Assembly (NCBI GenBank): GCA_036172245.1
Contig: JAYWIR010000033.1
Span: 186,001 to 250,000, forward strand
From: Raillietiella orientalis
Taxonomy: Eukaryota
DNA: 64,000 nt
Reading direction: 5' to 3'
Of this stretch, positions 18,249 through 52,993 are shown in pieces. A program made the translations under genes and the position numbers. Under the pieces are notes generated by a model. The model was not told where the DNA came from. It saw nothing but the letters and a program-made list of their open reading frames with translations, and did not search any database. Positions within the stretch are counted from its first letter, which is position 1. The number at the start of each line of letters is the position of its first letter.

Positions 18249-18334
18249 CGTCGTCAAAATGTACGACGCCAAGATGAAGCGGATGAAAGCACGGAGACGA
18301 GAGCGAAGAAAACACGTCCGCACTCGATTGAAAT

Positions 18335-19875: not shown

Positions 19876-22213
19876 CTGATAGCCGGAGATTGAAATCTCC
19901 CGCTATCAGGTGAGCCTTCCGCACGTTCGTGTCCGCCAGCCAGTCGCGCTTCAGGGATTCCAGCAGCCTGGTGCGGTCGCTGTATCCCTGTTTACCGCTG
20001 GGGGCGTACACATTCGTGACGATCAGTTCGATCGAGTCGGACCAGCTGAGAATCAGCTAACCGTCCCGACCGTCGTCAGCGAAGCGCACGCCCTTCACGG
20101 CCGCGTCGATGGCCGGCTTCACGAAGAACGCGACCCCGCAGGTGTTGCGGAGGCCGCACCGCCAATACAACCGACCCCTTGCGATCGTCTCGATTTCCTG
20201 GGCGTCTGTCGTGGTGATCACGTGGATCTCCTGCAGCAGGGCCAGGTCGAGCTCACGCAGGGTGTCGGCCGTATCTCGCCTGTTACCGTCGTCGCGCAGC
20301 TTGTTCACGTTCCAAGGGGCGGCGCGAATCCGACGGCGACTGGCGAGCCCAGGTGTCAGTCCTGGGAAAACGACGATGCGGCGTCCGCCACCTGCTGGGG
20401 CGGGACGCTAGGTGGAGGAGGAGGGTCAGGCGCTGCGTGCACCTGGTCCCCCTCCTCCATGGGTATCGGCGCGTCGAGCGGGTCACCCTAAGGTGGGGTC
20501 GCGCCTACCTGTTGGCCCTCCTCCATGGGGGCGGGCTGTTCAGGCTCGGCGACTGCAGGTAGCACTTCGCCCCCCTGCTCACCCTCCTTTATGGGGGTGG
20601 CCGGCTCGACGGCTTCCGAGCGTGGGAGTTCCCCCTCCGGGATTCCCACGCTACCGCTAACTTCCTGTTTCTCCTCCTCGCTGGTGGAGGGGAGGCGCCT
20701 CCTTGGTTTCTGGGACTTGCGTCCCGACTTCCTAGGGGGTGCCTCCGAGGAGGAAGATGCACTTCCGGCCCTTAAATCCGACTCACCTATGGGGGCCTTT
20801 TTCGCGGGAGCCGGCCTTCGCACGGCCTTGCGTGAGGGGTTCTCACGCTCCGCCAGCGTGGCCGCGAGCTCCTCCGCCGCCTTTGCGAACGCGGCGTCCT
20901 CGGTGTCGACCGGCGCGTCGCGCGGCTCACCCTCTGTTTGCACTGAGGGTTCGCCGTCGCGAACTTCGGGTGCGACGGAAACGGCGAGGGGAGGCTCGTC
21001 GCCCCGGGTGGCATCTTCCGGAACGCCGATACGTTCCAGTGCCCCCGTGCACTTGCGTACGGTTTTCGAACGCGGCCCGGGTTTTTTTGCCTTACCGGCC
21101 GGCTTCTCTTTCTTCTCCCTTAAAGGAGCTTTTCTCTCTTTTCTAGCTGCTACAAGTTGCCAGCCTTCTTCACCTTTCGCCTCTTGGCAAGGTTTATCCT
21201 CCGCTTGCTTTTGTTTGCAAGTCTTTTCTTTTGGAGGTTGAGGATCTGGCAGCTTCAGCCGGCCAGCGTCCGCCTTAGGTCTTGTGACCTTTAGTGCGCG
21301 TTTCCCCTGCGCCTTTTTCGCGGCAGGAGGAACCGGGGTGGGGCGTTTTGGGCACACACGTCGAACGTGGCTCTTCTCCCCGCACATGTGGTATTGGATG
21401 CTAGGATACCTCTTGGGATGGTGTCCTACGGTATCGCAGTAGCCGCAATCCCAGGGCTTTCCCACGTACCAGAGGTCCACGCTCTCTTGCGCAACCTCCA
21501 GCTTGTGAAGAAGCCCACAGTCCTTACTCACGGTTACCCGCGCTGCAGCCTGGCCTCCGAAATGGCTATTGAAGCCTTTAAAGATTGTTGGCTTAGGCCA
21601 CAGCGCGTGCACCTCACCGAGCTTCTGTAGTTCTTGTGCTACCGCAGAGCGTGTCATACGGCTCGTTATTCCAGTGAGATGGACCACCACGGAGCGGTGC
21701 ATCGTCACCGGCAAGATCTTGCGGCCGTCGACGTTCAGCGGGTTCGTGATCAGAGTTTGAGCCAAAGTGATCTCCTTGCACACCACCTCGACTCGCTGAC
21801 CTCCGCTGAGAACGGACAAACCGTCAAGATCTTGTTCTCTTACTCCAGCGTTTTGCAGCGCTTTCGGAAACGCGCGTGCCGTTTTTCCATCAAATAGGGG
21901 CCTACCTGTTACACCAAGCTGGGCTTGTACCCAGCTGCCCGGTAGGCCGCCATCTCGGCCACGGTTTCCGCGCTCGGCGCGGCCACCATTTCGCTCCAGC
22001 TCCTCGCCTTGGGCGGCGAGGGCGATTACGGGGCGGATGCCCCTGATTCTGTAGGCTGTGGGGGTGGGCAAGCCTTCCTCATACCTACCTCCATCGTGGT
22101 GTCCTCAGGCATTGCTGCCATCGGACACCAACGATGTTCCACACGAACACACAGAAAGAAAAAAACCGCTTCCTGTCGACTCACTCGGGAGCGAAGGAAA
22201 AATACGTCCACTC
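19876..22213 (-). mobile_element. Family T copy 1, upstream part (5' UTR, ORF1 22121-20356, APE N-terminus)
   Basis: 5' GAGTGGACGT at 22213; SEAPPRKSGRKSQK ORF1 signature; LLQEIHV, YAPSG, IAGDFNLR. Confidence 0.92.
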
Positions 22214-25141
22214 GCCAAGGGATTTGGAGACGGGTTACGTAACCAACGAGCCTATCTGCAGGCTCGCCGTTACGCCAGGACCCCCGACATCCGCAGGCTG
22301 CCGGAATACAAAGCAGGAGCTGAGAGGCAAGCCTGGCAGTCAGGATCGGCCAGCTTGCTGGACGATCAGGGCCAGGAGCATTCGGCACCCGCTCAGATCC
22401 GCGGTCTGCTGCGGCGTTTTTACTCCTCCCTGTACGCAAGAACGCCTTTCGAGCGGGATTTGCCACAAATCCAGCTTCCGGAAGGCGCTACTGCGATCAA
22501 GAAAGAGGAGAAAAAGTCCCTTGACGAGTCTTTTACGATGTGCAAGATCATCTCGGCCATCGGAAAGCTCAAGAAACAAAAGGTTCCAGGGGAGGACGGC
22601 CTGTCCGCGGAGTTCTATCAAACCTTCGCGGCTGAGCTAACCCCTCTGGTACATCAACTCACCTTGCTGATACGCAAGACCGGTGACGTTCCCGCCTTTT
22701 TTCGTTCGACAAAGGTGCAGCTTCTTTCTAAGGGAGGAGATCTGAGGAGCATAAACAACTGGCGTCCCATCACAAAAGTGAATGCGGACGCCAAGTTGGT
22801 GACTAAGGTTTGGGCAGAGCGTCTGGGACGGGTTGCAAACGCCTTCATCATCCGGAACAGACGTATGCTGTTCGGGGCGAAGCATGGAGGCGAACCTGTT
22901 CCACGCTTCCACCTGGCAAGAGCTCCAACACGAAAGGGGCTTGATGCGCACCGGGAATTCCGGTGAGTCCGTCAGTCATGCGACGGATGGTCGGATGGGG
23001 GAGGGAGCACTTGCGGTCGCTGTCGACTTGCGTAAAGCATTCGACAGCGTCGACGAGAATCTCCTGCTGAAGCTTTTGGAACGCTCGGGCATCCCGGCCT
23101 CATTATTGGCCTATCTGCGCTCTAGCTGGCGCGATTCGCAAATCAATGTAACTTTCAGCGGGCATACATTTCACGGCGTGCCGATGCGACGTGGGATCCT
23201 GCAAGGAGACAGCCTGAGACCCTTGCTCTTGAGTACCTACTTTGAGTTGGTACTGAGAGCGTACACGGAAACTCTGGCGCACTTGCCGCATGAATGCGCC
23301 GAAACGTTTGCGGTTTCATCATATGCGGACGACCTCCTGCTACTGCTCCCTATGTCCACCCCGCCTTCGGCGGTCGAGAAGTTCTTCGACCTGCTGAATC
23401 GAGGAACCGGGCTTACGGTGAACAGGGCGAAGTCGTCCGTGATGCCAGTTGGTGCGGCGCGGGCAATGCAGCAGGACTGGGTCCGTTTGGGGATCCCCAC
23501 GGTAAGGTACTTCAAGTTCCTTGGTGTGCCGTTGGGGGACTACTCCCCTGCGGAAGCGTGGTCCGGCTGCCTTCAAAAAGTAGAGACGGCTATCGGCCCG
23601 TTTGGAGGCGGCAGGTTTTTCCTTCCTGAACGGGCCGCGGTTTGGAACATGTTTGCGGCTTCTCTCCTCCGTTCCCCGCTTTTTGTTTGCCCCCCCACAG
23701 AAAGGATCAAAAAGCGGACGAAGGACCTTCTCCGTATCGCCCTTTAAGCCAACGGGAGGGCCCGAGTCCGCTTAAAGGACTTGTGCGTTCCTCGTTGGAA
23801 TGGTGGTCTGGGCCTCCTTACATTGGAGCGGCTGGAGCTGCAGCTCCAGTTCTGGATTTTGGCACTTGTGCCGGAGTTGTGGTGCACCTGTTGGTGCGTT
23901 TCTGCACGTCTCCTCCTTCAGCAAGCCACCGGCAAGACGGGACTTACGTCGTTTCTTGCGCTCCATCGAAACCGCATCAACCGATGTGAGCTTCAGCTAC
24001 GGAGGGTGGCTGCGCTGGCAAGGAAAAATCAAGGATGGATCACCTGTCTATCTGCGAACGGTAGTGCCTGGTTGCAGGAAACCGTTCGCACGTGGGGACA
24101 GTTCGGCATGCAAAGCTCATATCAGGAACGAAGCTTCCTGTTCGGGTGTTACAGAAGTTGCACGCTCCGTGAGATCCTGTAGGATCCTAAGAAGAGAGCG
24201 TGGTCAGGAAGAACCCCCCTCCGCTGCTGCGCTGGACTCCCTAGTAGAACATTGGGACAGCGATGTTGCGGCGAAGTGGGAGGTTAGGATAAAAATCTCC
24301 GGGAAGGAGAAGAAGCAGAGAGAGTGGAAGACGGGCCAGCTAACTGATGCTGCGTCCCCAAGTACGCCTCCTAATGGACTTGTGCGCTGGGGAGCGCTGC
24401 TGGATGTTTCCATTGAACATCTGAAGTGGCCTCCAAATCTTATCAACACTTCCATTATCCCTCTTAAATGGCAAGAGTCGGCATTCCTGTTGCAGCACTG
24501 AGGACTCCCCTGCAACGCACGTCGACACCACTGGACCTGGGGAGCGGTGGATCCCAATTGTGTGAGGTGCGGGGAACGGGAGTCCCTCCCCCACCTCCTA
24601 GTGGATTGTGTTGCCCTTCGGCCCCTTTGTTTCCGCTTTGCCGCGGCCATCGGTATCCCTTGCGGCAATCTCAGGGACGCACTAAAAGCCTTCTTTGTTG
24701 CCGACGCCCTGCGGCCAGCGTCCTCGATAGCAGCCTTGTGCTGCCTTCGTGGGATCGTCGCCGCCTGGTGCACGGCGACGGGAGGACCTAGCGATATGGA
24801 CGCCATCCAGTGCGCCTTCCAATTCCTGAGGAGGGCGTCGCGATGGCCCCACCTGGATGTTTATAACAAACAAGAGCTTGTCAGCATCCTGAGAAGGATG
24901 ATGCGGCCCCAGAAGCATCAGTGATCCCTTCCCGTTCCCTCCCACCCTTTGTTTTTTTTTGTTTAGTTTTTTTGTTTTTCCCCTTTCCCCTGCTGCCTTG
25001 GTGGACCGTACCGGTCTAGAAACCGGTGAATTAGCAGGCTCCGTGGTTCTTAGCTTCTGGCTGGAGCATTGCCACAGCCATTAATAATTACTTTATAAAG
25101 TTTATTTTTTAATAAAAGACCCGGAGAAATCCGGGTGAAAA
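22214..25141 (+). mobile_element. Family F copy b, 3' part (ORF2 from GFGDG to the end), pseudogenised
   Basis: Colinear with 2390-5304; YADD; zinc finger; ends AATAAA AGACCCGG AGAAAT CCGGGTG AAAA. Confidence 0.95.
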
Positions 25142-25711
25142 TCGAAAGCTTCACGCAAATCGACTGCGACCGCAAGGGCTCCAGGCGATGCATCTTCTTC
25201 CCGGCTTCCCTCCCCCCTATCAGTGGAGAGTCCAGGACTTTCCCGACGTAGCTTCGCCTCGCGTTGTTGCAACTGCCAGAATGTGCTGGCGAGGAACAGG
25301 TTGGCCTCCATGGTTCGTCCAAGAACAGCGTATGTCTGTTCCGGACTGATAACGGAGTCCGCTACCCGTGCCAAGCACTCAGCTCACAGTTTGGCGAGCA
25401 ACTTTGCGTCCGCATTCACTACAGTGATGGGACGCCAGTTTCCAACGTTGCGCAAGTCTCCTCCCTTAGGAAGGAGACGTACTCTAGCTGACCGGAACGA
25501 GTTGGGGACATCCCCACGTTTACGGATCAGCATACACAGTTTTAGCACCAGGGGGGCCAGCTCTGCCGCGAAGTATTGGTAGAATTCAGCTGGCAGGCCG
25601 TCTTACCCTGATGCTTTGTTTTTTTTCAATTTAGTGATAGCGGAGATTATCTCCGCCATCGTGAATTCTCGGAGGAAGAAGCTTATCTCTTCCTCCCTCA
25701 ACGAGGGAGCC
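25142..25711 (-). mobile_element. Q-like ORF2 fragment (RT N-terminus up to AFD)
   Basis: NWRPITVVNADAKLL, PEQTYAV, AVAVDLREAFD; resembles 45520-46050. Confidence 0.85.
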
Positions 25712-28021
25712 TGAAGGTAGCGGAAGCGTGGAAATCCCGGGGAGGGAAGTCCCACGCTCGGAAGCCGTCGAACCGGCCACCTCCATGAAGGACGGTGAGT
25801 TGGGGGGAACGTCCTCCCTGCAATAGCCAAACATGAACAGCCCGTCCTCATGGAGGAGGGCCAACAGGTGCCCTACGTCTGCTACGTACACCTGTTCTTA
25901 GGGGGAATCGCCGCCTCCATCCCATCATCCATCGTGATCTACCTCCTCGAAATCACCTTCCGGATGGCCAAAGAGGCTGTCCGAAAGGAATTATTGAAAC
26001 TTGGCACCGTGAACGCGCTCTGGAAAAAGTCTACTCCGTTTTGGAAGTATAATCTTCCCAATTGCTGTCAGGCTTCCGCGCGAATCACGGTGCGCGAAAC
26101 TTGCTCCTTACCAAACTAGCTGGAGGTCAACGACGAGCCCGTTGACGTTTAGTATGTTGGTAAGCCGCATTTTTGCGGGCATTGCAGCACTTGAGGTCAC
26201 CTGAAAAAAAGGTACCCCTACTTGCAGTGCAAGCAATGCCAGCAACCCAGGCACACTTTTCCGGTGTGCCCTGCAAATCAAGTCGGCGTCGCGTCCGCAC
26301 GGAATGCTAACCACCGCGGCCAAAAAAAAAGAGTTCTGGCAGCGCGAGAGCGAGCCGCCGCTAAAGAAAAAGCTATCGTGCCTCAGGTAAAAATCCGCTC
26401 CGAGATCCCGGAATACTCGGACAAGGTCGAGGAGAACGGCCAGGAACATGGAGGGCAGGTAGTAAAATCCAAGCCGCAGAAAAACCTCAAGGAACGAAAA
26501 AAAAACTTCGCAAAACGCAGCGAGAATCTGCCGCGTCACGAAAAGATCAAACGCTGCTCTGTCCTCATCAAGCGCATTGCTGTAGTCGAACAGAGTGGCG
26601 AAATTGAACCGTTCGCTGCCGACTTTCAGCCCTCCGGCAAATTAATGCCGGTGGATACCGAACTGGCGGTACTGGCCGTCGTCCAACTCCTGCTCGACGA
26701 CGTCGCCTTTGAGCGAGCGGCGGAGGAGCTCGTTGCGTCCTTGCAGCGTCTCGCCAAATCCGCGATAAAGGCCTTAAGGCGTCCGATCTCGATCAAGAAG
26801 TCGGAGATTCTGAGCTTTGACGCAGAGGCGGAAAATACGGACTGCGGCCTCGCGGCCTCGCGTCCAAGGGTCAGTGGCACGAAGAAGGCTACTTGCAAAA
26901 TTATCCCGTATGTTGAAATGGTAGAGACAATCGAGAAAAGCGAGCGTGCGAACAGAGTGGTGAACTCCGGGGACTCTCCTCCAGAGCTAACTCAACGCTT
27001 CGACGCCAGAGGAAGGGAAAAGGTAGAGTCTGTGGCCCAGGTGATTCAAGTGCCTGAGATGGCTGCGGTATCCTTACTCGTCTCTCCCACCTGTTCCATG
27101 ACAGGTGCTGCAATGCCACGTTCCCAGCCTGAATGCCGCGAATCGCCTCTTGTTGCCATCTGCGAATTACCTGTTGGAACGTCGGCAGGATAAGCGACAT
27201 CGGAAAGAGACGAGAGGTGGCCGCCACCCTGGCATCGTTTGACCTGGTGCTACTGCAGGAGATCCACGTGCTCTCCTCAGACCAAGCAGCAGAGATCGAG
27301 CGTATCTCGGGTGGACGGCTGCTGTGGCAATGCAGCACCGTTAAATCTTGCGATGTCGCGTTCCCGCTTCGGCCAGCTGTCAAGGCTGCGGCAAAGGGCG
27401 TAATGTTTGATAGTGCCGGTCGAGTCGGGCAGTTGACCATCAGGTGGTCCGACTCCATCGATCTGGTCATTACCAACGTGTTCGCCACAAGCGGGAGAGA
27501 CGTGCCAAGGGCAAAGGTAAGGAGAGATTTATTCCTTACTCTGAGGCTCGAGTATCTGGACAAAGTGGGAGAGCGCAAAGCGCACCTAATCGCAGGTGAA
27601 TCTAACCTTCACCTGCTGTCAGGTGCGTCCGACACACTTCAGAAGCGTGTGAACGAGCTATGCGCAGAGATGGACACGCGCAACTTGTTCGCAGGAGATC
27701 CGGAAATCACCGACAGCATAGATCACGTGTTTTTTTACTACCTCCTATGCTCACGCGTGGGCATGCGCGGCAAGTTACCGTCGGAACTGTCGGACCATGA
27801 CCGGATCCTACTGGACTTGCGCCTACGCGATAGGGGTCCCCCGTCATTTGCGTGGAGATTACCGAGAGACTGGCTGAGAATTCCGGTAGCCGCGGAACAT
27901 CTCCGAGGGTTCATACCAGGTTTCAGCTTGCTGACGCTTCAGGACTGGGACCACTTCGAGCGCTCGGTCTGGAAGTTTTGCGACGAGATCTCTATGAACC
28001 TCCTACCTGCCTGGTCAGGCG
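25712..28021 (+). mobile_element. Degenerate element: ORF1 remnants plus APE domain (ORF2 from 27133), preceded by a short T-like ORF1 piece
   Basis: DDVAFERAAEELVA; CWNVG, LLQEIHV, SDH; TGA-ATG junction at 27130-27135. Confidence 0.85.
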
Positions 28022-30388
28022 TTGCCACCCGGGTACGCTTGGGGCGTCTATTGAACAAAACTCTCTATAAAACGTGGTACAAGGCCTCATTTCATCCTGA
28101 GAGACGGGACCTGTCGGGACACCGGGAAGCAGCCAGTCGTGGCACTGCCCGACAGCGAAAGGGGATGGGGGAAATACAAAAGAAAGAATAAAAGAGATAA
28201 ACAAACAAAAAGAGTTCGGATAACAGGGAAGGGATCTCCAAGCGCTGTAAAGAGAGCCCATTCGTCGAAGGAGGCCCTCGAAGACTGCGCGCATACTTCA
28301 CAGATGGAACCATCGAGCAGCTCTTCGCAAGAAGCGTTCTGCATGCTGGATGACTTCCCTCTCGTTCCAATCTTAATTTTCGCTGCTGGCGTCGCTCCAA
28401 GCTGCCACGATGCCTCGAACGCAGCAAATACTTGCGAGGGCTGCTGCTGGCTGCAGAGCGTCACGCACGAAGAGGAGGCGGAAAACGTCTGTAAGTGCAA
28501 TGCCCATAGGCAGCCAGAGTGTCGTCCCGAACCGTTCCCAAAGTGGTCGGAGGGCATCACAATTCAATGTACGGTGAGGGAGCGATTCCCGCACCCCGCA
28601 CCTGTCACACGCAGAATCCACAGCCTTCCTCGTTCAGTGGAAGCGGCGCGAATTGCCGGGTGGACTCCAATCCAACAGAAGCAACGCCGACTCTTGCCAC
28701 TTGAGAGGCAGAATCCTGGATTCCTTCATTACTGGGGGCCACTTAAGCTCATCCCTGGGGATGAAGAGCAGCTCGCCCCTTCTCAATATTCCACTCGCCT
28801 GGACGCTCGGGGTCGTGGCTTCCGCTAGTTGACCCATGGTGCATCCGCTCATCTTCTTCTCTGCCCCTCGACGCAGCAGGAGACTTGCCACCTTGGGATG
28901 CGCCTGCTGTGAAGAGCGCTCCTAGGGAAGGGCATCGCCGTAGCCAGGCAGGTTGTCTCGGCTCACTTGCTTGCCGCGGTATTCTCCAAGAGATCCCGCA
29001 GCATGGAGCCGGCGTAGGGACCGCATCGGAGACATTTCCATGTTTCGTCGGTTCTCCGGTTTAACACAGCCCAGGTGCTGATGTTCTCCTCCAACGAGGA
29101 GAAGGAGTTGGCATGGCTGCAAATCATACAGCGGTTCTCAATGGCCAGGGTTGCCACGCGCCTGTGCAGTAGGCTGGATCTTCTTATTTTCCGACCTGGG
29201 CACAGAAGAAAGCACGCGAGTCCTTCGCAACATGACACACGGCTCTCTAGAAGGCGGGCCGGAATGCACCAAGAAGCGATGCACATTTTCGCTGCGATGG
29301 CGAGGTTCCGCCATGGCAGCTGTTTCTCCACGCGTTCCAGAGTCAGGAGGCCAACACCGCCGTCCCGACGCGGATCGCAGAAGCCCTGCAGAGGGACTCG
29401 GGCACTTCCGTTGCCCCTATGAACTATGCGAAGGAGGTCATCCGTCCTCTTCTTAATCTTTAATGGAGCGGGGCAAACAAAAAGCAAGCGGCGCAGGATG
29501 GGAGCCGCAAATGCGTTCCGAACCGCTGACCGTTCCGGCAAGTGAAACTTGCCTTCCAGAAACCGGCCAAACGCCGTCTCGACTTTTCGAAGGCAGCTCA
29601 ATCACGCTTCTGCCGGGGAATAGTCATTGAACGGCACACCAAGGTACTTCAACAACCTGGCCGTGGGGATCCCCAAAGACAACCAGTCCTGCTGCCCAAC
29701 CCACACCGCACCTATTGGAACCACCGAAGACTTCGCCCTGTTAACCTGCAGTCCGGTTCCGCGGGAGAGCAGATCGAGAAAGTCCTCGACTGCCGTTGCC
29801 GGGGTGGACATGGGTAACATAAGCAGAAGATCGTCGGCGTACGCTGCTACGGCGGGCGTGCCGGGGCACGAGCTCGGCAATGGGGCCAAAGTCACCCTGT
29901 ACGCTCTCAGCACCAACTCAAAGTAGGTGCTGAAGAGCATTGGGCTGAGGCTATCTCCCTGCCTTATACCCCGCCGCACCGGCACACGATACACATTCTG
30001 ACTGCTAGAAGAGATGGTAATTGTCGCGCTCCGCCAGCAAAAGCGCAAGTAGGAAATCAGGGAGGGCAGGAAGCCCATGCGACCCAGGAGCTCCAAGAGG
30101 AGTTCCTGGTCCACACAGTCGAACGCCTCGTAGAGATCTACTGGGAGCGCAAGGACCCCTTGTCTGCCCGAGTATTCCTTTCCAGCCCGGTTGACGGCCC
30201 CAATGTGGGGTTGCCGATTTTCCCTTTCCCTTTCTTTTTTCTCCTCTGCAGGTGCATCCATGTGCACGCGAAGAAAAGGTTGGCATCCACACTCCGCCCG
30301 GGAACAGCATAAGTCTGCTCCCGGCTAATTATGGATTTTGCCACCTGCTTCAGACCCGAAGCCCATAGACATGCTGGCAACTTGGCAT
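28022..30388 (-). mobile_element. Family T copy 2, 3' part (RT from DAKL to the 3' end)
   Basis: RT insert GKIGNPTLGP shared with T copy 1; YADD; CDRCGVRESLPH; 3' end GCGTACCCGGGTGGCAA. Confidence 0.9.
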
Positions 30389-32891
30389 GCAAACGTGTTT
30401 TTTCCGCGCACCTCTGTGCCTGTTGAAAAGGCTTTCGTTTTGTTAGTGTTTGTGTGTGGTGCATCTGCGGTGTGCAATGGCAGAAATTCTTGAGAACACC
30501 GCCATGGAGATCAGGGGAAGGAGAGGCTTTTTATTCTCCCTAACCCAAAGAGGTGGGGGCGACGGCCCCCACGGAGACAAGGACAATTACCTTCTTGAAA
30601 AAGGGATTAACCGTCCCGTCGTAAGCGAGGGCTGCCGCTTCCTTGAAAACGAAGCAACTATCCCCGTTGAAAAGTATGCAACCGCCCCCTTGAAAAACGG
30701 GGCAACCGCATAATTGGATACTTCCTCGGCAACGACGAATACCTGGAACGCCAAGAAGCAGCACAATTCCCTGAAGTCATCGGCGAACAGTGTGCCCACA
30801 GGGATCAAGGGTATAAACCATCCTTGATTTATAAGGCAGAGAACCTTTTTGTTGAAACACCGTTCGGAATTTCGAATGAGAGCTACAGCGTTTGCAGGAA
30901 AGAAGCATGGTTGGCACAAAAACTGCTGCGAACTTTTGTCAGGATCGAAAGTTGCCAGACCTTTCTTGTCCCGGTGGACAACTTAATAGTTGTTTACCTC
31001 CGCGAAATCACCTCACGGATGCCACCGAGTGCCGAGAGGGCTGAATTAAGCGAATTCGGCACCGTGCACGCACTGGGAGCGAAGCCCAACAGACTCCGTA
31101 CTTATGACGGACTTCTAGGCGTTCTGGCTGCTGCACGCATCACGGTTGCCAATGACGTTGGAATTACCCACAAAATTGTTGTCAACGGCAGTACTGTCGT
31201 CATCTGGTATGTGGGTAAACCCAGATTCTGCGCGTTCTGTGATGCTATGGGATACGTTAAGAAACGTTGTCTAAACATCACCTGCCGCAAGTGCGAGGTG
31301 ACCCGGCACACGGAAGAAGGCCGTGTTGAACACCCCGTTTGCGGAAACGCATGCAACCGGGGCGGAAGGAGAAGAGTCGGACTAGAAAAATTCAAGCTAC
31401 AAAGAAGGGAACTTGAAAGAGAAGAATAAAGTCCCTTGAAAACCTGCGGAACCCACAAAAAATCAGGTGCTGAAGAAACGCACGATCGGACTGGAGAGTC
31501 TTCCAGATGCAGAAGTGGCATACTAACAGGCCTTTGCCGTGTGCAACAACGCCGACAGTCACGTCGCTGTGCGAAGAGCATCCCAGGGCAGTAGTGAGGG
31601 GGAAAGCCGCGTTGACGCGATCTTTTCGAAGGCTGCCGGCGAGTTCGCCGCCGCCGTTCCGCAATCACTTGCAAAGGGCGAGAAGGCCGCTAGGAGTCCT
31701 GCCGAAAGTAGGGGGACCGGAACCTAGGACTCAATCCCGGAGTCCGGGCACGCACCATCCGCGTCTGCAACAGCATGGAAGACCGGACGGAAAATCCGTA
31801 GCCCGAGGAGAATCGTTTCCTCCGAGGAGAAGGAATCTTACGTAAACGAGGGTCCGTCGAGCGTGGGATCAATGGACTCGAGTCCTAAACTCCCACGCCC
31901 GGTCGAGACAGCCGCTGCAAGCGGAGGAAGTACTCGAGGCGCTTCTCACTGCAGACGAGTAAGAAAGCATCCCGCCCAATGGAGAGGCGGGAGAGGCTGC
32001 ATCACGTTCTTAGCATTAATGCCGGGATACGCCACCTGCAGTCAAATCCGCATCGCCAGTTGGAACGTTAACGGGCTTTGCGAAGACGGCAGGAGACCAG
32101 ACATAGCTGCCACCTTACAAGCCTTCGACCTTGTGCTGCTGCCGAAGATCCATCAGATCTCCGCAGAACATGCGCGGAAGATCGACAGAATAGCAGGTGG
32201 TCAGCTAATGTGGCGACGCGAACACTGCGGTACGGAAGGGGTCGTTTTCCTTCTGAAGCCTGCCTTACAACGTTCGGTAAGGAAAGTTCGTTTCGATAAG
32301 CCAGGTCGGGTCAGGCAAATCACCTTCAGGTGGTACGGCTCGAACGATCTCGTCGTCACGCGCCAAAGGGCGGTCACCTGCGCGTAGAACGGACGGCATT
32401 CTTCCGTGCGTTCCAGCGCGACTGACTGTCGGAGGCACGCACGCTATCGGCGCACTTGATAGCCTGCGATTTTATTATTCTCTTGCTATCAGGTGCGGCG
32501 AGGACTCAGGCCACCCCGGTTAACAAGATGTGCGCCACGGTGCACGCATTCAAATTGTTTGCCCCGGAAGCCGGGATGGATAGGAGCGTGGACGAAGTCT
32601 TCCTCGACATTCACCTGTTCTGTCGCTTGGGCAAGAGAGGTAAGATACATTCCGCTTTCTCCGATCACTGGCGAGTGGAATTTGTGATTCGCCCTCGCGG
32701 AACAGGGCCGCTTTCGGAGGCGTGGGGTCTAAAGGGGGAATTACTGTTGAAGCCAGGCGCAGCGGAACACCACCGCGCGTTCTTGCGAGGTTTCCGCCTG
32801 CAGATGCTCGACGTCTTTGACGATTTGAAAGTCTCAGTACGAGAGTTCTGCCAGCAGTTCCGCATGGACCGTCTCCCAAAAGGATTTGGTG
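30389..32891 (+). mobile_element. Degenerate element 5' part (ORF1, APE from TAATG at 32017-32021); possibly family K
   Basis: 5' GCAAACGTG motif; WYVGKPRFCAFC; SWNVNG; FSDH; family assignment inferred only from insertion site. Confidence 0.8.
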
Positions 32892-33018
32892 TTGCCACCC
32901 GGGTACGCCTGGTACGTTTATTGATCACAATTCTCAATAAATCGTGGTATAAGGCCCAACTGCGGCCTTAAACACGGAACCTGTCGGCACAGCGGAGCGG
33001 AGCCCGGCAGGGCACCTC
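32892..33018 (-). mobile_element. Family T 3'-terminal stub (about 125 bp)
   Basis: Matches 28022-28150. Confidence 0.85.
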
Positions 33019-33173
33019 TGCTGCTTCAGTTGATGAGGCTGATCGGAGACGAGAGCGATGTTCCCGCCTCCTTTCGGTCAGCCAGGGTGAGGGTCCTTAA
33101 GAAAGGGTGAGACCACAGGGATCAAGGAACAGGCGTCCGATCACGATTGTGAATACGGACGCCGAGTTGCTAG
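33019..33173 (+). mobile_element. Short RT N-terminal fragment
   Basis: DVPASFRSARVR, RPITIVNTDAELL. Confidence 0.75.
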
Positions 33174-33250
33174 TTGCCATCCGGTCACGCCGGGTAGTTT
33201 ATTATAAATTCTCTACAATTCGTGGTACGAGGCCCCACTGCAACCAACTC
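33174..33250 (-). mobile_element. Family K 3'-terminal stub (about 75 bp)
   Basis: Matches 36120-36195. Confidence 0.8.
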
Positions 33251-36119: not shown

Positions 36120-39014
36120 TTTTCACGCGGTCACGCCGTGGTGTTTATTAAAAATTTTCTATAATTGTTGGTACGAGTCCCCACTTCGGCCAACGCAAAA
36201 GGACCTGCCGGGTTGCGGTACGCAGACCGGTGCTAACTCTCCTCGGCAGCGATACAAGATGGGGAAAAAAACAAGATTAAAAATTGAAAAATAAAAACAA
36301 AAAGATTTTGGAGGGATCGGAAGGAATTACGTTCCATTGGGAGAGGGGTCCATTCTTTCGAGGATGCCCTCGAGGTCCGTCCGTATAATTCTCAGGTGGG
36401 GCCATCTGGTCGCAATCCGCAGGTAGCGGACTGCAAGTACGACGGCATCCCTGTCGTGGTTCCGTCTTCTGACGTCGATCCAGCATGTCACAATCCCGCG
36501 GACTCAGCAAAGTGCAGCCAGGGCAGTGGCTGGTCGCAGTTCATCCTGCACGAACGGAAGCCAAAAAACGTCTCTGTGCTAACTGCCCTCCTGGATCTGT
36601 AAGGAGTGACGAAGACGTTCCCACAGGGGTCGAAGGGCAGCACAATCAACTCGGAGGTGGGGGAGGGTTTCCCGCTCTCCACACCTGAGGCAGGAAGGAT
36701 TTACTCGACACCTATTTCAGTGGTGGCGGAGTGAGTTGCAGGGTAGACCCCAATGCAACAGCAGAAGCGCCGACTCCTGCCACTTCACTGGGAGGATCAT
36801 CGTACCAATGAATACTGGGGCTCACTTGAGGTCATTCATCATGATGCCGAGCAGTTCGCCACATCTCTTTAATCCACGCGGGAGGACACTTCAAGAAGTG
36901 GCATCGGCCAGCTGCGCTGTGATCCAGCCGCTTAACTTCTCTCTTCCTGCGATACGGCAGTAGAGTTGCCACCTATGCATGCGGCTGCAAGAGAGCGCCC
37001 TCCTCAGGAGGGGCATCGCCGAAGCTAGGGGCGTAGTCTCGGCCCACGTGCACCGGGAGGGACACTGCACAAAGGTCCGCAGGCTGCAGCAAGCGCGGTT
37101 GTAGAATCGCAGGCTGTTGTAGCTTTCTTCACCTTGGGCATTTAACCTCGCCCACGTTCCAACAGATTCCTCCAGGCATGCGGAGGAGTTGGCGGGGCTT
37201 CGTGCCATCCAGCCGTTTTCCATAGCCAGAGTTGCCATGGGTCCTAGGAGAAGTCCGCATCTTCTGATCTTTGAGTCACGGCAGAGAAGATAAGTCGCGG
37301 GACCCTTCGTCCAGGATACACAGCTGGAAAGGAGTCGGGTCGGAACGCACCAAGGGGTGCTCCAGAAATTCGCTGCGATGGCGAGAGTCGCAATCGCAGC
37401 GGAATCTCTACTCGTTCTATCGTCAATAGGCCGAGACCGCCATCCCGACGTGGAGCACACAAATCCTTCAGAGGGACTTAGGTCTCCCATTTCCTCCAAA
37501 AGGCAATTCTCAGGAGGTCGTTCGTTCGTTTCTTCAACTCTCTGGAGACGGTAAAAACAAAAAGCAGGGGGCAGAGGATGGAAGCCCCGAACGCGTTCCA
37601 CACCGTGGCCCGTTCCGGAAGAAAAAACTGTCTTCCAGGAACGGGCCGATTGCCGTTTCCACTTTTTGGAGGCAGCCGGGCCACGCATTCGAAAGGGAAT
37701 AGACCTTCAACGGCACACCCAGGTACTTCAAGCACCTTGCCGTGGGGTTCCCTAAGCGGTCCCAGTCCTGCAGCTTAACTTACCCCTCACCGACTAACAA
37801 CACCGTCGACTTCGCCCTGTTCGCCGTAGATCCGGACCCGCGGCTAAACAGATCGAAAAAATCCCGACCGCTTTCGCCCGAATAGACATCGGCAACAAGA
37901 GCAGGTGATCGTCGGCATAAGCTTCTACGGCGGGTATGCCGGGGTTCGAGCTCGGCAAGTAGGCCAAAGTCACCCTGTATTCTCTCAGCACAAACTCGAA
38001 GTAGGTGCGAAAGAGCAGGTGACTCATGTTATCGCCCTGCCGTATGCCCTGCCGTGCCATTATGCCGCAAGACCATTTGATCTCTGAAGGAGATATTAAT
38101 TAGCGCGCTGCGCCAGCAATAGCACAGGTACGTCAGTAGGGAGGAAAGGAAGCCCATGCGTCCCAGGAGCTCCAGCAGAAGATGCTGGTCCACGCAGTCG
38201 AACGCTTTATGCAGATCGACTGCGATCGCTAGGACCCCCTTCCCTACCTGGGAGTCCCATCCCTGCCCGGCTGACGTCCCCGAAGCAGGGCTACAAATCA
38301 TTACCTCTTCCTTATAACTTCTCTGCGCATTTGACCATGTGCTCCCGAAAAATAGGTTGGCCTCCATACTTCGCCCGGGAACAGCGTAAGTCTGCTCCGA
38401 GCTAATTATGGAATTGGCCACCTGCCCGAGACGGGAAGCCAACAGTCCCGCGAGGAACTTGGCGTCCGTATTCACAATTGTGATCGGACGCCAGTTGCTA
38501 AATTTCCTGAGAGCTCCCCCTTTCGGTAAAAGCCTCACTCTGGCTGACCGAAACGAGGAGGGAACATTGTGTTCGTCTTGGATAAGCCTTGTCAACTGAT
38601 GCACCACGTGTGCCAACCCTGCCGCAAAGCATTGAAAAAACACCGTGGGAAGGCAGTCCTCCCCTGGTGATTTATGGCTCTTGATCGTTTTGATACCGGC
38701 GAGAATTTCGCCGGTTATAAAAGGCTCGTCGACGATTTTCTTCTCCACCTCCCCTATTGCCTGGGCACCACCCGGGAGCAAGCGCCAAGAAGCATCTTGG
38801 TCCGGGGACGCCCTGGCGTAAAGGGTGGTATAGTAACACCGCACGAGGTACCGTATTCTGGCCGAGGCCGAGTTCTCCCGGCCCTGATCGTCCAGCATGC
38901 TGGCCGACCCGGATTGCCAGGCTTGACGTTCGGCCCCGGCTCGGTACTCCGCCAGGTGATATACATTGAGGGTCCTTGCGTAACGACAGGCATACAGGGA
39001 TGCCCTTTCGTTAC
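36120..39014 (-). mobile_element. Family K element, 3' part (linker, RT, zinc finger, 3' end)
   Basis: ORF 38029-39042 NWRPITIVNTDAK and DLHKAFD; YADD; KYLGVP; terminal hairpin. Confidence 0.9.
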
Positions 39015-41339
39015 AGAAAGACGTGCTGTTCCGGCGCTCCATCGACGAGTCCCGGAAAGCGGATTGATTGTGCGTTTTTTAACATTGTTGGTGTCCGATG
39101 GCATCGCCTCCAGAGGACACCACGATAAAAATAGGCGTGAGGGAGGCTAGCCCCCCAACGGCCTACAGAATCAGAAGCATACGTTTCGGAATCATCCCCG
39201 GCGATGCCGTGGACCTGGAGCACTATAGTGGCCGCACCGAGCGCAGAAACCTTGGCGGAGCAAGCGGCTGAAAGGGCCTCAAAATATAAACCATCTCTGG
39301 TTTATGAGGTAGGACCCCTGTTTAATATTCGCACCGCCCGGGCCTTCAGTAAGGCACTACAGGACTTTCCTGTAAGAGATGAGGATCTTGACGGCCTCTC
39401 CGTACTCAGCAAGGGGAGCGCATGGAGGTCGTCTGCAAAGACGTAGCCATAGCACAGCGCCTGATAAACCCCCGCTAAATGTGGATGGCTGGAAGATCCT
39501 ATCGGTTAGCATGGACCGCTCCGTAGTGGTCTATCTAACCGGAATCACAAATTGTAAAACGCGCTCGGCGGTAAATTCCCAGTTGACGAAATATAACGCG
39601 GTACACGCGTCGTGGCCAATACCCACCATCTTCGGAGGATTTAATAGCTATTTCGGAGGCCAGGCCACAGCGCGTGTCACTGTCAATTAGGGTGCTGGGT
39701 TTGCCCCACACACTGGAAGTAGCGAAGGAATCCGTCTACCTCTGGGACGTGGGGAAACCAAGCTATTGTGGCTACTGCAATTCAGTAAAGCAATTGCGGA
39801 AGTGGTGCCCGCACATTCAGTGCCACTTGTGCGGGGTTAAGGGACACGTGCGTCGTGTGTGCCCTAATCGCCCCACCCCGGTGCCACCTGCTGCCAAAGA
39901 GACGCAGGCCAAACAAATGAACAAGGTCGAAAGTCCTAAGCGAGAAACTGGCCGGCCACAGCCGCCATCTCCTCTTCCTCCCACCCAGGCGTCGGATGAT
40001 AAAACCGCGGAAGACGCGGGAGTGGAGGAGGAATGGCAACTGTAAAAGGCCAGGAAAAAGAAAAAAGGGGTCAAAGAACCAGGGAAGATAACGGAGACCA
40101 AGAACACGGCCGCCAGAAAGAATGAAGCCGCGCCGCTTTCAAAAAAACACCGCGAGTGTCCAGTGGAACTGGCGAGGCAGTCACCCTGGGCGAAGAGCCT
40201 CCAGTCACCGTTTCCGCCCTGCCCGAGGTACACGAGGGCGAACCCTCTGTGCAATCAGAGGGTGAGCTGCGCGACGCCCTCGCCGCTGGCAAGGATGCCG
40301 CGTTCGATAAGGCGGCGGAGGAGCTCGCGACCACGCTAGCCGAGCGTGAGAACCCCTCACGCAAGGCCGTGCGAAGGCCGGCTCCGCCGAAGAAGGCCCA
40401 GAAGGTGATTCCGACCTAAGGGCTGGAAGTGCATCCTTTTCCTCGGAGGCACCCACCAGGAAGTAAGGACGCCAGTCCCAGAAGCCCAGAAGGGGTCACC
40501 CCTGAACCAGCGAGGAGGAGAATCCGGAAGCCGACGCCAGCGCGGCAACCACGGAGGGGGAATTCCCACGCTCGAAAACCGTCGAGGAGGCCATCCCCAT
40601 GGAAAAGGGAGAACAGAGGGGCGAAGTCCTCCCTGCAGTCGTCGCACCTAAACAGCCCGCTTCCATGGAGCAGGGCGAACAGGTAGGCGCGACCCTGCCT
40701 GAGGGTGAACCGGCCGACGCGCCGTTACCCATGCAGGAGGGGGAACAGGTGCTCGACGCACCTGTCCCTCTTCCTCCTAGCGTCCTGCCTTAACAGGTGG
40801 CGGACGCGGCATCGCCAATTTCCCAGGAATAACACCTGGGCTCGCCTGTCGCCGTCGGATCCGCGTGGGCAGTTGGAAGGTCAGCGGGCTGCACGACGAC
40901 GGCAACAGACGAGATACGGCCGACAACCAGCCTGAGTTCGACCTGGACCTGCTGCAGGAGAACCACTAGATCACCACGGCAGACGTTCAGCAAATCGAGA
41001 CGATCGCGTGGGGTCGGCTGTATTGACGATGCGGGGCCCGCAACACCTAATAAGTCGCGTTTTTCGTAAAGTCGTCCATCGACGCTGCCGAAAAGGGCGT
41101 GCGATTCGATGACGACGGTCGGGAGGGTCAGCTGATTCTCAGCTGGTCCGACTCGATAGAACTTATGTTCACGAATGTTTACGCCCGTAGCGGAAAACAG
41201 AAATACAGCGACCGCACCAGGTTGCTGGAATCTTTAAAGCACGACTGGCTGGCCGATACGAACGTGTAAAAGGCACACCTGATAGCTGGGGACTTTATTC
41301 TCCGTCTGCTGTCAGGTAAGTCCGAAGCGCTTGAATGCG
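39015..41339 (+). mobile_element. Family T copy 4, 5' part (ORF1 about 39098-40832, APE start), degenerate
   Basis: AGACGTG 5' motif; AFDKAAEELATTLAERENPSRK; TAACACCTGGG ORF junction. Confidence 0.88.
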
Positions 41340-42660
41340 CGGTACACGGCGGACGCCATTGTTGTGCGCTCCGTGGATAGGAAGTTTTTCTTTTCTGGTG
41401 TTTCGTGTGTGTTTCTCGGCCGTTGACAGGCAGAAATGCCTGTGAACGCCGCAGTTTCAGGTGAGGGAGGCGGGAAGACCGCGTCTCCCAAGCCAAAGGA
41501 GGTTAGATCACGCCCCATTACTTCTTCTGAACCCGCCACTACGGCGAGGGCCTGGAGCGCGGTGGCAGCGGCGGAGACGCCCGATGTCGCCGCCGAAATC
41601 CAATCCTACATCCAGGAGGGCTACAATCCGGCCCTCCTGTACAAGGTAGGCAATTTATATTCCCCGTTAAGGGCGCGAAAGTTCGGCAATGCCATCAAAA
41701 AGATGGGCCTTGCCGACCATGAAATTCTTTGCCTCTCTATACGGAGCGGAGGGCAGTTGGCGGAGCTCATCTGCAAGGATGCAGCTCTTACCCACAAGAT
41801 GCTCTGCACGCCCGTACAATTTGAGGGCAGGAATTTACTCCCACACACGGTGGACCACTCCATTGTGGTCCACCTAACAGGGACAACAGTGCGGATGGAT
41901 GAGAACGGCATCCGCGCTAAACTGGAAAAATGTGCAAGCGTTTTCGCGATGTGGAGAAAGCCCAACACCTTCGGAGTGAACGGTGCATTTAGTGGGCGAG
42001 TAGGCGCGCGCGTGACGCTTCGAGAAAGCGTACAGCTTCCCCACAAGCTCCAAATTGGCGACGACTTAGTCGACATTTGGTCTGTGGGGAAACCTACATT
42101 TTGTTGAAACTGTAAGTCGTTCCCACATTTGAAAAAGCGGTGCCCGGACGCAGTTTGCCCAACTTGCGGCGCGAAGGGCCACACCAAAGTGGTGTGCCCG
42201 ATGAACGTCGCTCCAACGCCGGAACTTCCGCAAAAGAAGGAAGGGAAGGCAAAACTAGTAATCAACCCCAAAAAAAGGGATCAGCCGTCGGCTCCAACAA
42301 AAGTCGCGCAGCAGGAAAGGGACTCGGTACAGGAGCTCCCAGAAAAGACTGCCGACGAGGAAGGCTGGCAGCTGGTCACCCGTAAAATAAAAATCGGCAA
42401 AAAAACCGCGCCCGCACCGGCGAAAGTGGTGAAGGGCAAGGGGAAGGTCGCGCCACGCCCAACAATCAAAGCGTGCAGCGTGGCCATCAAACGCGTGCCG
42501 GCGATCGATACTCGCTCCGGTGACGGATCCATGCGAAGTGACGTCACGCCAGCTGTTCAACCCGCCGCCTGAGAGGGTGCACGTGCTTTTGTGGTGCTCC
42601 GCGTTTTTCTCGCGAGTGTTTTCGGGGTTTTCCGCTGTGAGCGGTTGTTCCTGGGCAGAG

Positions 42661-44328: not shown

Positions 44329-44336
44329 ACGCATCA

Positions 44337-47300: not shown

Positions 47301-47918
47301 CAATCGATTAAGTCGTGGACATCTCGGCAGCTAGTTGACGCTTCGACGCCGAGTGTCCCGCCCAACGGAATTCGACGCTGGGGCGAGCTACTCTGACTAT
47401 CTCCGGAGGAGATGAAGTGGCCCCCAGCGTTCTGGAACAGTGCATCCCTCCTTCTGAAATGGCAGGATGTGGCGTTGCTTGTTGTACTCTGGGGATAACC
47501 ATTTAAATCACGCCTGCACCACACCACCCGGGAAGCTGTGGATTCGAATTGTGACCGGTGTGAGGAAAAAGAAACATTTTCCCTCCTTCTCCTTGAGTGT
47601 AGCGCCCTCCGCCCTTTGTGGGATCGTCTCGCGGCGATCCTGGACTTGCGCGGATGCGGCCCAAAGGACGTTTTTAGGCGCCTCTTCTGTAGTGACGCCT
47701 TGTCCCCGCCCGCTAGTGTAGCAGTCCTCTGCTGCATCAGAGGAATAGTGGCGGCTTGGAACGCCACCAGAGGAAGGCGTCAGCCAACCGGCAACGCCTT
47801 ACACTGGACTCGCCTTTTCGCGCGCAGTGTCTGCAAGTGGCGACACTTGGGCGCTGAAAGGACTCAGCTTGTGCGGATCCTGAATAGGATCTAGAGGACC
47901 TCTCCACGCGCACCGTGA
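44337..47918 (+). pseudogene. ORF2 of Q2, single frame with several nonsense codons
   Basis: ORF pieces at 44337, 45399, 46029, 46767 and 47538 share a frame; GDFN, KAFD, YADD, CDRC finger. Confidence 0.93.
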
Positions 47919-52505: not shown

Positions 52506-52975
52506 ACTTCGGCTGCAGCCGAGCATTGCTGGCCAACCTCATCGAGCAGACAAGCCGCAGCCCTTGCAGCCTCGTGCTGCGTCCGAGGCATCGTTGCGGC
52601 ATGGAGCGACACCAACAAGGAAAGAGTGGGTCAACACGCGAGGGATGTCATCCCATATGCCCAACGCTTTTTGCGGAGAGCTGCTAAATGGCCCCAACTG
52701 GGGAATCTACGGATGGACCTCGAGGGCTTCCTTCAACGGATGGGCCGTCCTCTCAGCGAACAGTGATCCCTTCATTGCCCCCCAACCTCACTTGTTTGTT
52801 TGCCTATTTGTTTTTATTTTTGTTTTTCCCCATCCCCTTTCGCTGCCGGGGAGTGCCACGCCGGGCTGCGTCCCGGCGTCCCGGTAGGTACCGTGCATAA
52901 GGACGTGAGCGGGGCCAGGTACCGCAATTGTAGAGTTTTTTATAAATGAACGCCCCGAGCGTACCCGGGTGATAA
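52506..52975 (+). mobile_element. Family T copy 5, short 5'-truncated copy
   Basis: CCVRGIVAAWSD-coding end and 3' UTR match 28022-28440; ends GCGTACCCGGGTGATAA. Confidence 0.88.
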
Positions 52976-52993
52976 CTCCGAATCCCCGCTGTG

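Follow-up and report, generated by a model that had tools for sequence, protein, structure and literature searches.

Family T, a non-LTR retrotransposon lineage that occurs in the 64-kb stretch of DNA analysed here (the window), is very probably an autonomous L1/Tx1-like LINE that is target-primed into one fixed ORF2 site of LINEs belonging to the same superfamily. As a sequence-only reading had claimed, T inserts antisense at the LPxGFG linker between APE and RT: all six T termini observed in the window lie at this site, T is antisense to its host in all five inferred insertions, and no T terminus was found elsewhere in the 64 kb. The sample on which this model of T is built is one window of that length with five inferred events.

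Elements of the window

Pfam matches on the open reading frames characterize the window as a dense nest of related APE- and RT-encoding non-LTR retrotransposons (Table 1), in which every element copy is interrupted or carries stops or frameshifts somewhere. T elements are about 5.8 kb long; their ORF1 has putative CCHC knuckles, and their ORF2 encodes APE and RT followed by a putative Cys/His motif at the C-terminus. They possess a conserved, non-poly(A) 3' module that ends in ...GCGTACCCGGGTG(GC/AT)AA, an end that is also given as ...GCGTACCCGGGTGRYAA.

Table 1. Coordinates of T elements, their hosts and the A-family array in the window.
Feature	Position	Strand	Description
T1, 5' part	19881..22213	-	5' end GAGTGGACGTATTTTTC at 22213; ORF1; APE to the GDFN motif
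T1, continued	5306..6556	-	From GDFN in APE as far as RT motif A; aa 165-583 (A-ORF2 numbering)
E2 (E family), host of T1	22211..25141	+	(L)AKGFG codons to own 3' end
E3 (E/V-like, 72% to V), host of T2	25696..28021	+	ORF1, APE; ends ...CTACCTGCCTGGTCAGGCG (LPAWSG+1)
T2	28022..30386	-	3' end ...GCGTACCCGGGTGGCAA at 28022; 3' UTR; ORF2 from aa ~1184 back to ~494
E4 (own family), host of T3	30387..32891	+	5' end ATGCAAACGTGTTTTTTCC, then ORF1, APE; ends ...CTCCCAAAAGGATTTGGTG (LPKGFG+1)
T3	32892..33005	-	Just the last ~115 nt of the T 3' UTR; 77% identical to T2
U2 (T-related)	36120..39014	-	RT 76% to T1; without GNPTLGP; host of T7/T5 and T6
T7	39015..41371	+	5' end AGAAAGACGTGCTGTTCC; ORF1; APE to aa ~196
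T5	52506..52975	+	Final 470 nt of one T copy; 3' end ...GCGTACCCGGGTGATAA
Host (U2) target remnant, 19 nt	52976..52994	-	CCACAGCGGGGATTCGGAG in host sense (PQRGFG+1); between T5 3' end and T6 5' end
T6	52995..55706	+	5' end AGAGCGGACGTGCTTTTC; ORF1; APE to aa ~280
A-family head-to-tail array	6548..19880	-	Two full 5.9-kb units and one 5'-truncated unit; 95-96% identical

T1, whose ORF1 is an open frame of 538 aa (20491-22104, minus strand), is broken at 19880/19881 by the A array, whose units are separated by ATTTCAATC and which entered T1 at its GDFN codons, in sense and with ~21-23 nt of flank duplicated. The continued piece of T1 has a GNPTLGP insert and its own uninterrupted site (LPSGFN, at 6152) and is cut at 5305/5306 by the 3' end of E1; the T1 3' end falls outside the window, to the left past E1, and the target sequence expected in its 3' flank is CTCCAAATCCCTTGGC. 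T2 gives way to the 5' end of E4 at the DxKLL site, T7 gives way to the 5' end of G2, and T6, which retains an uninterrupted GDFN site at ~55350-55390, is cut at 55706/55707 by the 3' end of an antisense V element. T5 is probably the 3' part of T7, if a deletion of ~3.3 kb at the G2 insertion is assumed. What had been read as a single T copy at 32892-39015 dissolved into a composite of a ~115-nt T fragment, other pieces, and the T-related U2, which has a different target and, with its own 3' end, occupies the DxKLL site in F2. Fragments are also present at 33006-33245.

The 3' junctions of family T

Three T 3' ends adjoin host ORF2, and all of them do so at the identical nucleotide. The junctions were placed by alignment in host sense with eight uninterrupted homologous sites (in A1, A2, V, T1, F2, G1, E1 and G2), which give the pre-insertion sequence; 58634 (minus strand) and 45201 (plus strand) are examples of such empty sites. 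The joint lies after base 1 of the codon that succeeds L-P-x-G-F-G (...GG-N-G) in the linker. With a slash marking the joint, the junctions read ...TGG TCA GGC G/TTGCCACCCGGG for E3-T2 (28021/28022), ...GGA TTT GGT G/TTGCCACCCGGG for E4-T3 (32891/32892) and ...CCCGGGTGATAA/CTCCGAATCC for T5 (52975/52976), the last being the antisense of GGA TTC GGA G. Because all fall behind base 1 of the codon that comes after GFG, the codon phase is identical in the three cases, as had been stated before and is now borne out against the eight uninterrupted sites; the alignment of T flanks suggested as a check, run within the window, brought the 3' ends to one nucleotide (3/3). The site in E3, one of the three hosts, reads LPAWSG, and of the 10 nt on the upstream side of its nick only about half match the other hosts, from which we conclude that the recognised sequence is not simply the GFG codons. 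The part of the target downstream of the nick cannot be observed in occupied sites.

It is very unlikely that T has just a regional or structural bias towards LINE-rich heterochromatin with a loose sequence preference and that the exact coincidence is a small-sample effect. Five events from one window and a target in E3 that differs in the GFG codons would agree with such a preference, but the 3' ends are nucleotide-exact in three of three cases and fixed in orientation. By our own arithmetic, the chance that three independent 3' ends share nucleotide and orientation in hosts of ~6 kb is (1/12000)^2, or ~7e-9, and the A, E and U lineages are likewise exact at their own sites.

The 5' junctions and target-site duplication

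Relative to the nick, the three T 5' ends lie at -16/-19 nt (T1), -19 nt (T6) and +9 nt (T7). Beyond T1, the host E2 picks up with (CTC)GCCAAGGGATTTGGAG at 22211/22214-22229, the position equivalent to the T nick being 22229/22230, and the first base of T6 is directly preceded by the 19-nt CTCCGAATCCCCGCTGTGG. The flanks earlier called similar to a target-site duplication (TSD), at 22213 and 52994, do both hold the stretch of 16-19 nt immediately upstream of the nick. From these two 5' flanks and the T5/T6 spacer we infer a TSD of 16-19 nt, and the spacer itself can be read as a duplicated target; a single T copy with both duplicated flanks was not found in the window. The 5' end formerly placed at about 39015, some 10 nt past the site, exists and lies 9 nt past the nick, yet it belongs to a plus-strand element, T7, within the minus-strand U2. 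The host sequence restarts there with a loss of 9 nt, the truncation of U2 lying 9 nt downstream from the position of the T nick.

A highly improbable alternative to endonuclease targeting is that these junctions came from recombination, from template switching or from twin priming among related LINE RNAs or DNAs. In twin priming, part of one element is inverted, with variable breakpoints. The site does fall within a conserved coding block common to all families, and the nest has undergone other rearrangements (the fragments at 33006-33245 and the probable 3.3-kb deletion at G2). However, each junction joins the host to a full T 3' terminus, 3' UTR included, in inverse orientation, and homologous internal positions are not what is joined; between the target and the T end (...GGCAA or ...GATAA) there is no microhomology; and the T 5' flanks contain target duplications.

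Under target-primed insertion, the T endonuclease would nick the host sense strand after ...GG-N-G, and the freed 3'-OH would prime cDNA synthesis from the end of the T RNA. Second-strand cleavage 16-19 nt upstream would then yield the TSD and leave a further cleavable copy of the site beside the insert. A second T may land at this retained site and produce a head-to-tail T-19 nt-T dimer, as presumably happened with T7/T5 and T6, whose insertions may have come in either order. As the T 3' terminus lacks complementarity to the target, the specificity would reside in the APE domain and not in pairing between RNA and target. Tandem TE dimers reportedly form when two copies insert into a single target site (PMC5932611). 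Like such dimers, the A array and the T5-19 nt-T6 arrangement are head-to-tail with a piece of target between the copies; unlike in those dimers, repeat insertion in the window would follow from a sequence-specific nick site that is kept beside the first insert.

Relationships of T copies and their hosts

T1 and T6 are 90-91% identical, T7 shares 80-83% with both, and T2 shares 83% with T1 in the RT overlap. The 3' UTRs of T2, T3 and T5 are 69-77% identical to one another and 43-60% to those of the A, E, V and G lineages; the U 3' UTR has 63-76% identity to T, overlapping the range within T. The GNPTLGP insert, on which the family had partly been based, occurs in the window only in T1 (5402, minus strand) and T2 (30215, minus strand).

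The T hosts represent at least three families, E2 belonging to the E family, E3 being E/V-like, E4 separate (56-61% identical to all other families) and U2 T-related. E3 and E4 are 58% identical, with differences of 0.38/0.32/0.56 at codon positions 1/2/3; the corresponding values for E3 and V are 0.22/0.19/0.43. The enrichment of host differences at third codon positions indicates that the T junctions are independent events and not copies of one composite. That one ancient T insertion was copied by segmental duplication or gene conversion, the shared junction being a single event, is therefore extremely unlikely: 27889-28125 and 32759-32995 do align at 69% over host and T, and all T junctions lie inside one 31-kb region, but the E3/E4 identity is at the between-family level, their third-position excess and largely open APE frames would not result from neutral decay of duplicates, the hosts E2 and U2 come from other families, and the sequence past each T is wholly different.

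Classification

Pfam Exo_endo_phos and RVT_1 were detected in one 755-aa frame of A2 (14095-16359, minus strand) and also on pieces of T, E, G and V. The order of APE and RT in ORF2 fits an APE-type non-LTR retrotransposon (Pfam, E=3e-11 for the APE of T6 and 2e-13 for the RT of T2), as do the insertion signatures, namely a defined 3' end, a TSD or small deletion, and 5' truncation (T3, ~115 nt; F1; A3). A shared 3' module marks 14 element 3' ends in the window according to an nhmmer profile. Among solved structures in the PDB, human L1 ORF2p gave the best match (E=2e-42, vs 6e-15 for R2), an uneven comparison as other APE-LINE clades are without a solved RT. The APE of A2 matched L1 endonucleases with weak scores (1.5e-3 to 5e-3), and it had no match to the R1Bm and TRAS1 endonuclease chains at E<=0.01. 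Strings of the form CX2C...H...C are found in ORF1 and at the ORF2 C-terminus; Pfam zf-CCHC_2 reached only 6e-4 on T7 ORF1, and PF13966 zf-RVT was frequent on distant database matches (<=30% identity). Sequence-specific insertion into a repeated target, a trait of the Tx1 clade, is present in T (3/3), E (2/2), U (2/2) and A (two independent cases plus the array).

The single close protein relative was P0011, from a JGI contig of 2870 bp, with 60% identity to A and 71% to V; all others had at most 36%. A metagenome scan with RT alignment kept 80 of 175 confirmed loci, all at 23-33% identity and thus not usable as relatives. The 3' module pattern had no matches in genome contigs, and the ESM Atlas returned just generic APE+RT clusters. 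Rfam, at the gathering threshold, and a tRNA scan of the window gave no matches either, the former indicating that no known 5' ribozyme is present.

The RNA fold of the 3' module was discarded as evidence, the consensus of 11 modules being a terminal hairpin of five pairs in which compensatory changes are absent; a loose regular expression aimed at the 3' hairpin returned 298 matches, most of them spurious, and the nhmmer profile was used instead. Self-immunity, in which a lineage's own copy of the target is mutated, was also rejected, since occupancy of 0/4 non-GGNG and 4/8 GGNG sites did not differ significantly. T1's own site encodes GFN (AACG instead of GGNG) and is unoccupied; own-target mutation in lineages other than T followed no clear pattern.

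Other site-specific lineages

The window contains at least four site-specific lineages: T, A, E and U. A elements insert in sense at the GDFN motif, A1 and F1 both preceding ATTTCAA (two independent cases and the array). E elements insert antisense at RT motif A of T-family and G-family hosts, and the 3' ends of E1 and E2 follow antisense ...TTCG(G/A) (2/2). The U lineage uses the RT 'DxKLL' codons, again antisense, with U1 and U2 following antisense ...TTGCTAG (2/2), and the E4 5' end in T2 occupies this same site. T and U are close relatives (76% RT identity) with different targets. For the G family, comparison within the window found no target shared by G1 and G2; the TSD of G1 is 12 nt.

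Discussion

The window is best read as harbouring a group of L1/Tx1-like LINEs with target specificity, which home to conserved codons in the ORF2 of their relatives. We lean slightly towards a broader interpretation as LINE hyperparasitism, in which a self-nesting community of sister LINEs, each with an endonuclease retargeted to GDFN, the LPxGFG linker, RT 'DxKLL' or RT motif A, would use prey codons as a safe haven, with close relatives such as T and U having switched target and with TSD-regenerated sites seeding tandem arrays.

Known targets of APE-type elements, according to the literature consulted, are rDNA, telomeres, small-RNA genes, microsatellites and a few DNA or LTR transposons (PMC4640811, PMC4494074). 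Work on the Tx1 clade describes insertion of Tx1 into the piggyBac-type Tx1D, of Tx1-Mar into Mariner-N4_AMi, of Tx1-8_Crp and Tx1-4_AMi into LTR retrotransposons and of Tx1-9_AMi into Harbinger elements (PMC4494074). These target-specific LINEs belong to the L1 group, as T probably does, and resemble T in that they encode an APE and occupy a fixed position and orientation in another mobile element; their specificity is credited to the endonuclease, a poly(A) target not being needed (PMC4494074). Unlike in those examples, the targets in the window are conserved ORF2 codons, in the APE, the linker and the RT motifs, and the LINEs that carry them are related ones, T relatives included; sister lineages use different sites in the same protein gene.

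R1 and R2 insert into 28S rDNA, and TRAS and SART into telomeric repeats (PMC4640811, PMC1919474, PMC7265360). T shares with these R1-clade and early-branched LINEs a nucleotide-exact, multicopy conserved target, 5' truncation and a defined 3' end without copied poly(A). The targets of R1, R2, TRAS and SART are host RNA genes or telomeres, whereas those in the window are other retrotransposons, and R2 uses a restriction-like endonuclease in contrast to the APE of T. Our literature search, thin on subscription journals and Repbase reports, found no description of LINEs whose targets are conserved ORF2 codons in other LINEs.

Site-specific LINEs are natural models for programmable, RNA-templated gene insertion. 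If our interpretation is true, close relatives that cut different sites of one gene would offer a comparative series for DNA reading by APE and for specificity change, a natural series of reprogrammed APE specificities. LINEs could then treat codons conserved in other LINEs as a safe target, and since this target is constrained by the protein function of the prey, escape of the prey by mutation would be limited. Conserved prey codons would thus form an inescapable multicopy haven, as rDNA does for R elements, and a link would emerge between competition among TEs, the expansion of TE islands and the origin of tandem arrays.

Insertion of family T at the APE-RT linker

Copies of the LINE family T, which encodes APE and RT, lie at the LPxGFG linker of ORF2 in other LINEs: all six T termini in the window are found at this site, antisense to the host in every case. 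The observation made in an earlier sequence-only reading is thereby confirmed for this single window and its interpretation supported, with anatomical corrections. A common ~75-nt module, searched with an nhmmer profile of nine element ends, is carried by 14 3' termini in the 64-kb window and consists of an AATAAA-like sequence, CCCGGCG..CCGGGTG and a further 2-4 nt ending in AA. In T, the AATAAA-like signal is located ~25 nt upstream of the terminus and the module terminates in ...GCGTACCCGGGTGRYAA, while the lineage-specific GCGTACCCGGGTG(GC/AT)AA occurs on all three T-type ends. The antisense of the host L-P-x-G-F-G codons plus one base directly follows each of them (3/3). Alignment in host sense with eight uninterrupted sites (A1, A2, V, T1, F2, G1, E1 and G2) placed all three 3' junctions at one base and in one codon phase, as had been claimed.

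The motif (G)AG(Y)GGACGTGYTTTTC is present on all three T 5' ends, whose junctions spread from -19 to +9 nt relative to the nick, which follows the first base of the codon after L-P-x-G-F-G. Flanks resembling a TSD had been reported for two of these ends and were recovered, and the third, described as roughly 10 nt past the site, was measured at 9 nt. The RT insert GNPTLGP, proposed as a mark of the family, holds for T1 and T2 and was found only there. The APE of T6 lies in a natural open frame of 285 aa (54853-55707).

Termini, target sites, nested pieces and reference motifs (positions in nt of the window, or in aa of the family A ORF2)
Feature	Position	Strand	Remarks
T2 3' end	28022	-	T-type module
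T3 3' end	32892	-	T-type module; T3 runs from here, ~115 nt, all T 3' UTR
T5 3' end	52975	+	T-type module
T 5' end	22213		host resumes with 16-19 nt preceding the nick
T 5' end	39015		host continues from 9 nt past the nick
T 5' end	52995		19-nt host remnant, 52976-52994, just before
Empty T site in V	58634	-	
Empty T site in G1	45201	+	
Empty T site in A	15456	-	
T/U-like RT fragment	~33006-33170	+	
U1	33171-33245	-	U-type 3' end, 75 nt
F1	33246-35144	+	A-like, 5'-truncated
F2	35145-36119	+	E-family fragment
U2	36120-39014	-	
E junction	5304/5305		host T1
E junction	25141/25142		host X, G-family fragment (25141-25695); host families differ
U junction	33170/33171		T/U-like host
U junction	36119/36120		E-family host
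GDFN	aa 164-167		
LPRGFG	aa 302-307		
RT 'DVKL' block	about aa 494-498		
RT motif A (KAFD)	about aa 583		

Element families

Related non-LTR retrotransposons fill nearly the whole window (G+C ~57%), in which tRNA and Rfam scans found no tRNA and no Rfam family. Pfam Exo_endo_phos and RVT_1 were detected on stop-to-stop frames of both strands (132 frames scanned). A nearly intact family A element served as the coordinate scale, with an ORF1 of 678 aa containing CCHC-type strings and an ORF2 of ~1207 aa containing APE, RT and a C-terminal Cys/His string. Every fragment was placed on this scale by tblastn of the A ORF1 and ORF2 proteins against the window, and pieces were sorted into families by a nucleotide identity matrix. 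Family T comprises T1, T6, T7, T2 and the small fragment 33006-33170, with U2 as its sister (76% in RT). The E family contains E1, E2 and F2 at 85%, V at 75%, and E3 (72% to V); the A family contains three array units and F1 at 71%; and the G family contains G1, G2 and X. E4 is a separate family, 56-61% to everything else. At the right end of the window, the distant LINE Z (60800-63943, minus strand; 26% to A ORF2; RVT_1 E=2.5e-28) is of the poly(A) type and apparently terminates in a run of A at ~60810-60822, which sets it apart from every other family there.

Anatomy of the nested T copies

The stretch 32892-39015 had been taken for a single T copy with its end at 39015. It is a composite of six pieces (T3, the T/U-like RT fragment, U1, F1, F2 and U2; positions in the table), and the end at 39015 belongs to T7, a plus-strand copy that interrupts U2. 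T7 in U2 and T1 in E2 are arranged as mirror images, and 19881-23815 aligns with the reverse of 37428-41307 (blastn). A direct repeat of 12-13 nt, CAACCCGCCGCC, read as a 12-nt TSD, lies on either side of G1 (42565-48149, plus strand), at 42553-42564 and 48150-48162; G1 is nested inside ORF1 of G2 (~41372-42564 plus 48150-52505). Because G2 connects T7, at APE aa ~196, with T5, the final 470 nt of a T copy, we infer a single original T copy, T7/T5, from which ~3.3 kb disappeared on G2 insertion. U2 would then have been hit twice: one T, with its 19-nt TSD, would have left a cleavable site in which the other T landed, giving T7/T5, 19 nt and T6. The final structure is compatible with either order of the two insertions.

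The plus-strand T/U-like RT fragment and the adjacent 75-nt U-type 3' end (33006-33245) are homologous (75%) to the F2/U2 junction at 35983-36194 and have unrelated pieces on both sides. They could have arisen by deletion or recombination, or could represent the RT of E4 after an internal deletion.

Hosts of T

Five T insertions were counted, in four host copies (INDEPENDENCE of T events): E2 (E family), E3 (E/V-like), E4 (the separate family) and U2 (T-related). With an identity of 58%, E3 and E4 differ by 0.38 at first, 0.32 at second and 0.56 at third codon positions; the corresponding values are 0.22/0.19/0.43 for E3 and V, and 0.09/0.05/0.16 for T6 and T1. Long APE frames are still open, and the sequence past each T differs between insertions. 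Duplication of a dead composite followed by divergence of the hosts is made very unlikely by the codon-position pattern, the open APE frames and the differing outer sequence. Judged from the sequences, host divergence arose under protein-level selection, in separate active lineages.

Putative mechanism of T insertion

At the T junctions, the complement of the T 3' terminus directly continues the host sense strand after ...GGNG; orientation is fixed and no poly(A) is copied. The T endonuclease would nick the host sense strand and cDNA would be primed from the T RNA end, with second-strand cleavage 16-19 nt upstream producing the TSD; no T copy has both flanks in the window. The 3' end of T1 would be expected to read ...GGGTGRYAA, then CTCCAAATCCCTTGGC(GAG), then antisense APE of E2. 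Since the T terminus was not seen to be complementary to the target at the junctions in the window, the target is most likely recognised by the T APE domain. In PMC4494074, recognition by Tx1- and R1-clade elements is likewise attributed to APE. Over the 10 nt upstream of the nick, the E3 site (LPAWSG) agrees poorly with the other sites, and some of the recognised sequence probably lies outside these 10 nt, for example downstream of the nick. That downstream sequence is strongly conserved in empty sites but no longer adjoins the junction in occupied sites.

Unoccupied target copies that lack GGNG before the nick include that of T itself at 6152 (minus strand), which reads GFN (GGATTCAACG), and that of E1 at 2378 (plus strand), which reads GFK (GGTTTTAAGA). 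These could be cases of immunity through target mutation, at numbers too small for more.

Other lineages with fixed sites

The 3' ends of E1 (5304, plus) and E2 (25141, plus), ...CCGGGTGAAAA, adjoin antisense RT motif A, VD(F/L)(H/R)xAF(G/D), at the same base after ...TTCG(G/A). U1 (33171, minus) and U2 (36120, minus) adjoin antisense P-I-T-x-x-N-x-D-x-(E/K)-L-L after ...TTGCTAG; U2, although a sister of T, has another target. The full-length E4 5' end lies at the U site in T2 (30386/30387), with 13 nt of duplicated target. A1 (6548, minus) and F1 (35144, plus), inserted in a T host and an E host, end in ...GGGTGATAA; both are in sense and directly precede ATTTCAA in the stretch that codes for GDFN. 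The insertion in T1 is a head-to-tail A array (6548-19880, minus), placed in sense at the GDFN codons, in which two full units of 5.9 kb and a third, 5'-truncated one share 95-96% identity; its outer flanks duplicate ~21-23 nt and T6 carries an empty counterpart of the site. Its units are spaced by only ATTTCAATC, 9 nt equal to both the target and the apparent element end, and the array could be due to repeated insertion or to RNA ends formed by read-through. V (55707-59353, minus; E-related), ending in ...CCCGGGTTTCAA, is a single case: it lies antisense in T6 at codons LRGVTLRNL (aa ~280; junction 55706/55707), some 22 codons upstream from the T site. An A-related element with a full-length 5' end (GTGCAGACGTGTTTCC; 59354-60800, plus; ORF1 50% to A) adjoins V at APE aa ~62. 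No common target was found for the G elements in the window. Each of at least four lineages has inserted two or more times, independently and to the exact nucleotide, at a conserved ORF2 motif specific to that lineage.

Relation to known LINEs

Among solved structures, the RT is best matched by human L1 ORF2p (2e-42, versus 6e-15 for R2), and zf-RVT is frequent in distant database relatives (<=30% identity); affiliation with the L1 group would fit these matches. The sole close public relative is a 619-aa protein on a 2.9-kb JGI contig. According to PMC4640811, the known target-specific APE LINEs belong mainly to the Tx1 and R1 clades, with 'transposons' among the known targets, and PMC4494074 describes Tx1-clade families with insertions in piggyBac, Mariner, Harbinger and LTR elements. 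The literature searched, which excluded most subscription journals and Repbase reports, yielded no case of a LINE that has conserved ORF2 codons of another LINE as its target, and no sister lineages dividing up sites in one gene. T and its sister lineages would belong to a known kind, the target-specific LINEs.
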